A stretch of DNA of 63,499 nt, the filler included, from Collodictyon triciliatum (taxonomy: Eukaryota): the NCBI GenBank assembly GCA_043381765.1. It is 5 parts of 5 records of this genome, joined end to end, with 100 filler letters (N's around TTAATTAATTAA, not from the genome) between each part and the next. Parts side by side here need not be neighbours in the genome. Positions count along the whole stretch, not along the records: positions 54,115 to 63,499 come from JBHJMP010001931.1; 4 more parts are not named here. The stretch is one strand, 5' to 3'. The notes beneath the pieces were generated by a model that worked only from the letters and a program-made list of their open reading frames with translations, was not told the origin of the DNA and made no database searches. Every line of letters begins with the position of its first letter. Positions within the stretch are counted from its first letter, which is position 1. Shown piece by piece: positions 60,467 to 60,554 of the stretch. The position numbers and the translations under genes are program-made.

Positions 60467-60554
60467 AACCTGGTCTGCTAGTATCCAAGGCCTCACCACT
60501 TTTTTCACAAAGATTGTGTAGTGATGAAGGCTGCCAGGAACGACCCGACAGCCT
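60467..60554 (-). ncRNA. Candidate Fanzor omegaRNA scaffold (three adjacent hairpins)
   Basis: Hairpins at 60554-60528, 60527-60493 and 60492-60467, with G-U pairs valid only on the minus strand, ~75 nt downstream of the RuvC-III codon. Confidence 0.5.

Follow-up and report, generated by a model that had tools for sequence, protein, structure and literature searches.

The minus-strand segment at positions 60467–60554 of the analysed window, that is, of the whole stretch of 63,499 nucleotides (filler included) of Collodictyon triciliatum DNA, is probably what survives of the omegaRNA scaffold of a dead Fanzor1 element, at whose 3′ end it lies. This reading is based on the fold of the segment, on the strand specificity of that fold, on its location where a Fanzor1 gene ends and on the match of its first two hairpins, H1 and H2, to the helices P1 and P2 found at the same place in related elements. 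The segment most likely represents a further example of the Fanzor1 design that has already been described, with no new system involved, and the copy of the scaffold found here is most likely an inactive relic. Since the nuclease gene is broken, this RNA could act only with the protein of another copy.

On the minus strand, positions 60554 to 60467 give three abutting hairpins that succeed one another without any linker and that comprise 31 base pairs, five of them G-U. H1 (60528–60554, minus strand) has 11 bp, including two G-U pairs, with the arms AGGCUGUCGGG and CCUGGCAGCCU closing a 5-nt loop, and lies within the last codons of the ORF, where it encodes QAVGSFLAA. H2 (60493–60527, minus strand) is a two-tier hairpin, composed of an outer stem of 8 bp (one G-U) and an inner stem of 5 bp, whose A-rich internal loop (AAAAA) is found on the 3′ side. 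H3 (60467–60492, minus strand) is formed by 7 bp, two of them G-U, with a loop of 11 nt and a single bulged U. The sequence, pairings and linker-free arrangement are those claimed in the initial annotation, and the RNAfold minimum free energy structure of the 88-nt segment is exactly the three-hairpin structure (−34.2 kcal/mol, z −3.43), with one of 200 shuffles folding equally well. The three hairpins are therefore confirmed to exist as described. The plus strand of the same 88 nt reached −22.7 kcal/mol (z −0.89), a value equalled by 35 of 200 shuffles. The G-U pairs and this folding asymmetry favour an RNA in the gene sense, which agrees with the earlier proposal that the strand specificity of the hairpins points to structure at the RNA level.

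When 10,986 segments of 88 nt, taken from both strands, were compared for stability after correction for GC content, the hairpin segment ranked second (−3.55 SD), and further very stable segments were found in the same scan at 52757, 15885 and 54869. The mean pair probability of H1 was 0.96–0.98 in contexts of up to 251 nt and 0.41 at 451 nt, and that of H2 remained at 0.84–0.97 throughout every context length tried. For H3, the pair probability went from 0.77 within the 88-nt segment to 0.01–0.20 when at least 25 nt of downstream sequence were included, and in a 146-nt context this hairpin was displaced by an alternative AUACUAG/CUAGUAU helix. H3 is the weakest-supported hairpin of the three and is context-dependent. 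Possibly it corresponds, in shortened form, to the terminal helix P4 of the relatives, since to the eye its arms (CCUUGG/CCAGG) look like those of P4 in the giant-virus locus L001 (CCUUGAA/UUCAAGG). A match to a known noncoding RNA, which the initial annotation had raised as a concern, was looked for in Rfam, in which no family matched at its gathering score across the whole window; tRNA and tmRNA genes also numbered zero in the whole window.

The gene at whose end the hairpins lie is a Fanzor1 pseudogene (60505–62454, minus strand), collinear by tblastn with residues 1 to 643 of P0001, an intact 648-aa relative found in a public metagenome; over one piece of 154 aa the identity is 66%. P0001 matches the solved Fanzor1 structures GtFz1 (E 2e-28), PpFz1 and SpuFz1 (PDB 9cer, 9cf0 and 8gkh), and the RuvC motifs VGVDAGK, VNEFR and TTDFNSA are legible in the relic. 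When the best frame was followed against P0001, six frameshifts, near 62231, 62140, 62042, 61605, 61376 and 60771 (minus strand), and five in-frame stops were observed; therefore, this Fanzor1 copy is dead. Three of the six frameshifts, those near 62231, 62140 and 61376, sit at homopolymer runs, and some could be assembly errors instead of mutations. At curated cut-offs, Pfam returned nothing for the ORF pieces of the relic and nothing for P0001, for which no match appeared at E up to 0.1 either, and no second Fanzor copy was found in the window. The initial annotation had located the hairpins just 3′ of the Fanzor. They do lie where the gene ends, but 50 of the 88 nt correspond to its final 16 codons plus the stop, with H1 and most of H2 overlapping these codons and the UGA stop codon (60507–60505) falling inside H2.

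An exhaustive search with proteins recovered 3,147 relatives at E ≤ 0.001, and 447 encoded relatives were found in viral contigs, nearly all of them giant-virus contigs. The best 80 of these 447 viral relatives (34–47% identity) were fetched together with two more from metagenome contigs, giving the loci L001–L082. With P0001 alone as the query, no related loci were obtained in metagenome or viral contigs; the closer alignment A2 gave none in viral contigs but, in metagenome contigs, two loci of viral type, and P0002 as the query gave no additional 3′ tail. The 3′ ends of the relatives share the nucleotide blocks UCUUUCACC, GGAAAAAGUUAGACCAUC and GUUGAUUUUAC and a terminal GGUGUAA, and in 46 of the 49 distinct 3′ tails the end motif GGTGTA is located 190–229 nt past the Asp codon of RuvC-III. 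Because the ORF stops fall at varying points within these conserved blocks, the conservation is not due to coding constraint. In L005/L007 and L006, identity runs through GGTGTAAAAT, with divergence immediately beyond it.

The terminal inverted repeats (TIRs) of the giant-virus Fanzor1 elements are near-perfect and 31–39 nt long (TTACACC...GAAGATTTAAAACGCCG and its complement), the left repeat being TA-flanked and found 330–500 nt upstream of the gene and the right repeat constituting the 3′ arm of the last helix. Among the ten loci examined, the inverted terminal copy was clear in five (L081, L014, L053, L051 and L025, as in L014:2048–2078 with 4454–4484 and L081:380–411 with 2622–2653), weaker in L012 and L005, and absent within 700 nt in L001, L003 and L004. 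As the terminal repeat recurs inverted upstream, the structured region of the relatives therefore extends into the right TIR of a TA-flanked transposon. For the four closest distinct tails (L001, L003, L081 and L004), RNAalifold gave a consensus of 37 pairs, of which 11 show compensatory changes. In this structure, P1 has 12 bp and is abutted without a linker by P2, a two-tier helix that covaries and has an A-rich 3′ internal loop; downstream, a conserved single-stranded linker is followed by P3 and then by P4, which closes onto the terminal repeat. P1–P4 presumably constitute the guide-RNA scaffold of this family.

The window was compared with these relatives by means of R1, a covariance model built from these four tails, which was run unfiltered over the whole window on both strands. 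R1 matched at 60455–60558 (minus strand), an interval that comprises H1, H2, H3 and a short 3′ tail and corresponds to the proposed scaffold relic. The match scored 20.9 bits with E 0.0017 for the window alone, an E value that is rough given the four training sequences, and E was 0.0023 when the four loci were searched along with the window. It was the sole match at E < 1 on either strand (127 kb), the next-best one in the window reaching 8.2 bits (E 1.9). The alignment matched H1 to P1 and the two stems of H2 to the two tiers of P2, with mostly compensated pairs and few shared letters, P3 and P4 were skipped as a local end, and H3 fell on no helix. No R1 match was obtained at the other very stable segments (52757, 15885 and 54869), and therefore stability alone does not account for the score. 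In the fetched loci, R1 found 46 sites at E ≤ 0.01, all of them on the strand of the Fanzor gene and at its 3′ end, and distant subfamilies scored 23–28 bits.

When the window was aligned with the four tails, 98.2% of the cells paired and 15 of the 37 pairs were changed on both sides, a level of pairing matched by none of 500 shuffles and reduced to 41–49% with slid partners, in an alignment that was fitted to R1 and is hence biased toward structure. In P1, both-side changes across the five sequences affected 8 of the 12 pairs. As judged from the model, H1 is a probable homologue of P1, and H2 of P2. The core interpretation of the hairpins as an omegaRNA scaffold, already put forward in the initial annotation, is supported by the gene, which is a Fanzor1 relative, by the covarying structure that the relatives carry at the same place and by the R1 match at the site, which aligns H1 and H2, but H3 is left without support from the relatives.

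Other searches did not recover the site. R2, a family-wide model rebuilt from all 46 R1 matches, from which P1 was dropped, as most subfamilies are without it, gave 9.8 bits at the hairpin site (E 8.6, H2 only), which is not significant, and a larger R1 search that included the fetched loci listed no site in the window at E ≤ 0.01. BLASTN against the relatives detected no similarity in the hairpin region, matching only the coding stretch 60614–60800, and H1 is offset by about six codons from P1 in the protein alignment, according to our own reading. Seven viral-contig loci obtained from an exact 17-nt scan with the hairpin stretch were discarded as chance matches of 17–27 nt. Additionally, R2 gave marginal matches (E 0.39–1.2) in an AT-rich stretch, at 44256–44372 (minus), 47225–47365 (plus), 42013–42149 (minus) and 46278–46408 (minus), one of which contains the exact GTTGATTTTAC (44312–44322, minus) and ends in GUGUAU. 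They were rejected as scaffolds: their stems are broken, no Fanzor gene is nearby, and the motif with at most one mismatch was observed four times, against 2.4 expected. These matches at 42–47 kb are probably due to chance, and there is some possibility that they are orphan scaffold relics.

The right end of the element is bracketed to about 60434–60463 by the end of the R1 match (60455) and by the cover of related contigs, with a related contig whose alignment reaches 60453 and a contig of the flank, near-identical, that covers 60261–60463; the right end and the start of the guide would fall at 60434–60454 (minus strand). Of the features of the relatives, P3, the linker GUUGAUUUUAC and the terminal repeat have no counterpart in the window. 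Because P3, this linker and the repeat-derived P4 are missing, the window scaffold would be either a naturally shorter or a truncated form. A search of the window for a terminal inverted repeat of its own reached a score of 20, against 19.4 ± 2.3 for shuffles, with 86 of 200 shuffles scoring as high, and the candidate pairs 60491–60520/63065–63094 and 60422–60437/62524–62539 were rejected as no better than shuffles. The little or no contig cover below about 60453–60465, with none at 59400–60255, was also rejected as a mark of the right boundary, since missing cover is no evidence. On the minus strand, a CTAG followed by T (60441–60438) and an AATAAA (about 60427–60422) lie 26–45 nt past H3; these are short motifs, which might represent a Helitron-like 3′ end and a poly(A) signal, respectively. 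On the same strand as the Fanzor relic, a 309-codon open frame (59493–60422, minus strand) starts about 30–40 nt past it, shows a higher G+C content and a hydrophobic second half, and is Pfam-negative. This frame is possibly a host exon, with the element inserted upstream of it.

By extension from published work on Fanzor1 and TnpB, transcription in a working copy would proceed through the nuclease gene and on to the right end of the element, whose last ~100 nt would fold into P1 (H1), the two-tier P2 (H2) and, last, a short hairpin (H3 or its alternative). The next 14–21 nt of flanking DNA would then serve as the guide, and the Fanzor would bind the scaffold and cut guide-matching DNA beside a TAM.

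The TnpB omegaRNA, or reRNA, belongs to a bacterial system with another scaffold architecture and another transposase. In IS200/IS605 elements, this guide RNA begins at the 3′ end of the nuclease gene and crosses the right end of the element, its scaffold overlapping the coding end (PMC10432273). For Fanzor1, it is reported that fRNAs abut the right end of the element (PMC10530073), and that SL1 is common to the Fz1 omegaRNAs, the remainder being variable, with SL1–SL4 present in GtFz1 (PMC11423790). GtFz1, from Guillardia theta (PDB 9CER), provides the best solved-structure match of P0001, and its omegaRNA is described as overlapping 17 C-terminal codons (Saito 2023, PMC10432273), against 16 codons in the window. 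Its SL1–SL4 chain (Xu 2024, PMC11423790) resembles, in general description, the viral P1–P4, whereas the window has at most three hairpins.

SpuFz1, from Spizellomyces punctatus (PDB 8GKH), is reported to have an omegaRNA with a 75-nt scaffold of two stems and a 14–15-nt guide, and this short right-end scaffold belongs to a Fanzor-only element of ~2.1 kb (PMC10432273). The window scaffold is likewise short. However, the two stems and linker of SpuFz1 span a 30-nt inverted repeat (PMC10432273), and no repeat was detected in the window. In the ghost loci of S. punctatus, the scaffold outlasts a working nuclease gene, as it would in the window, but the gene is wholly missing there and is present and broken here; moreover, action in trans is reported for the ghost loci (PMC10432273) and would be hypothetical for the window scaffold. 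The giant-virus Fanzor1 proteins (L001–L082) belong to the same protein family (35–47% identity to P0001), and their 3′ structure is found in the same place, with P1 abutting P2 as H1 abuts H2. The giant-virus scaffold has four helices over ~150 nt and ends in a TIR of ~30 nt, while that of the window is ~50 nt shorter and lacks both the linker GUUGAUUUUAC, which is invariant in the viruses, and the P4 3′ arm, which in the viruses is the right repeat ending in ...GGTG+TA.

Six public sequencing runs, none of them recorded as RNA, share 0.05–0.08 of the words of the stretch. Four of the six were compared as contigs, and one of these, X4, is a conjectured RNA run whose cover is uninformative on expression. 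Diverged pieces over the Fanzor body, mostly 80–95% alike, numbered 351 in X4 and 139 in X1. One X1 contig (X1 record 1) spans 60453–60632 unbroken, with 19 other letters and two gaps in 180 nt, and therefore a diverged relative retains the hairpin region at the gene end, at the same length. The divergence of this contig over the hairpins, of about 12%, is within the range of 11–17% that the eight X1 contigs listed for the ORF show. At 60770 and 62040, which are sites of frameshift in this copy, related contigs carry one extra base, indicating that less damaged relatives exist somewhere. One X4 contig joins 60561 to 60793 with nine other letters, omitting 231 nt that code for the zinc finger and RuvC-III; this single contig of low likeness may come from an internally deleted relative that retained the hairpin end.

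The existence of less damaged relatives bears on the idea that the scaffold is still used, either loaded in trans by a Fanzor from intact copies or co-opted by the host, which the initial annotation had proposed on the ground that the scaffold appears better preserved than the ORF. All 31 pairs are intact beside an ORF with six frameshifts and five stops, which would agree with such a use, as would two precedents, namely the ghost omegaRNAs that work in trans without a Fanzor gene (PMC10432273) and the 20 extra fRNA copies carried by C. reinhardtii (PMC10530073). However, slower evolution of the hairpins was not seen when the 19 letters and two gaps in 180 nt were set against the 11–17% of the eight ORF contigs, and the part of the relatives' scaffold nearest to the guide has no counterpart here, so that continued use is considered unlikely. 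The joint proposal that the Fanzor1 of this lineage uses a naturally minimised scaffold of ~100 nt (P1, P2 and a single short hairpin), having lost P3, the invariant linker and the repeat-derived helix kept by all giant-virus relatives, and that copies with dead genes supply guides in trans to intact copies appears distinctly unlikely.

It is very unlikely that the hairpins are a different cis element, such as a stability or termination structure at the mRNA 3′ end or a single-stranded DNA structure involved in transposition. The G-U pairs and the folding asymmetry favour a gene-sense RNA, and the covariation preserves the P1/P2 pairing in or near the coding end, far from the repeat, although the terminal helix of the relatives includes the right TIR, a DNA-level element, and the function of their P1–P4 is itself a prediction for this family. 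The CTAG and AATAAA motifs past H3, if they are a Helitron-like end and a poly(A) signal, would also fit a cis element of this kind. On the other hand, every Fanzor1 tested so far is reported to use the RNA of exactly this region as its guide scaffold (PMC10432273, PMC10530073, PMC11423790). It could also be argued that the hairpins arose by chance as the sequence decayed and have no role, past or present, as folding to this degree (one of 200 shuffles as good) is not rare genome-wide, H3 is unstable in longer contexts, sequence similarity to the relatives is absent at the site and R2 misses it. Nevertheless, a segment that ranks second among 10,986, on the right strand and in the exact place of the family's structured RNA, and that gives the sole significant R1 match in 127 kb, with the other top-folding segments unmatched, makes this explanation highly improbable.

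As a probable scaffold relic, the segment is of minor importance for the biology of the window, where it represents a dead transposon copy with a legible guide-RNA end of a design already published for Fanzor1. A usable covariance model is now available for the giant-virus Fanzor1 family, which comprises 447 relatives and shows a covarying four-helix 3′ structure that reaches to the TIR. If the three-hairpin form were functional, it would represent a natural case of scaffold minimisation, which is a goal of engineering studies (PMC13434818, PMC12923547).

The window looks eukaryotic: besides low-complexity tracts and N gaps (near 12270 and 26313), it contains one ORF with ankyrin repeats and another with a transposase-like helix-turn-helix. 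The poly-A/poly-T-rich low-complexity tracts at 40029–40308 and 12196–12460 are palindromic, with arms of up to 140 nt that are 95% complementary. The helix-turn-helix of the 709-codon open frame at 2352–4481 (plus strand) matches that of Sleeping Beauty/Tc1-type transposases (E about 1e-6), and this frame is, to judge by that match, another transposon relic. The most stable GC-corrected 88-nt fold of the window (52757–52844) lies on the strand opposite to the ankyrin-repeat ORF (52396–53283, plus strand; Ank_2 E 6.5e-36). A 78-nt dispersed direct repeat is present in three copies, at 32656–32733, 47127–47204 and 59007–59084, with 67–82% identity to the reference copy, and one of these copies lies ~1.4 kb downstream of the Fanzor relic.
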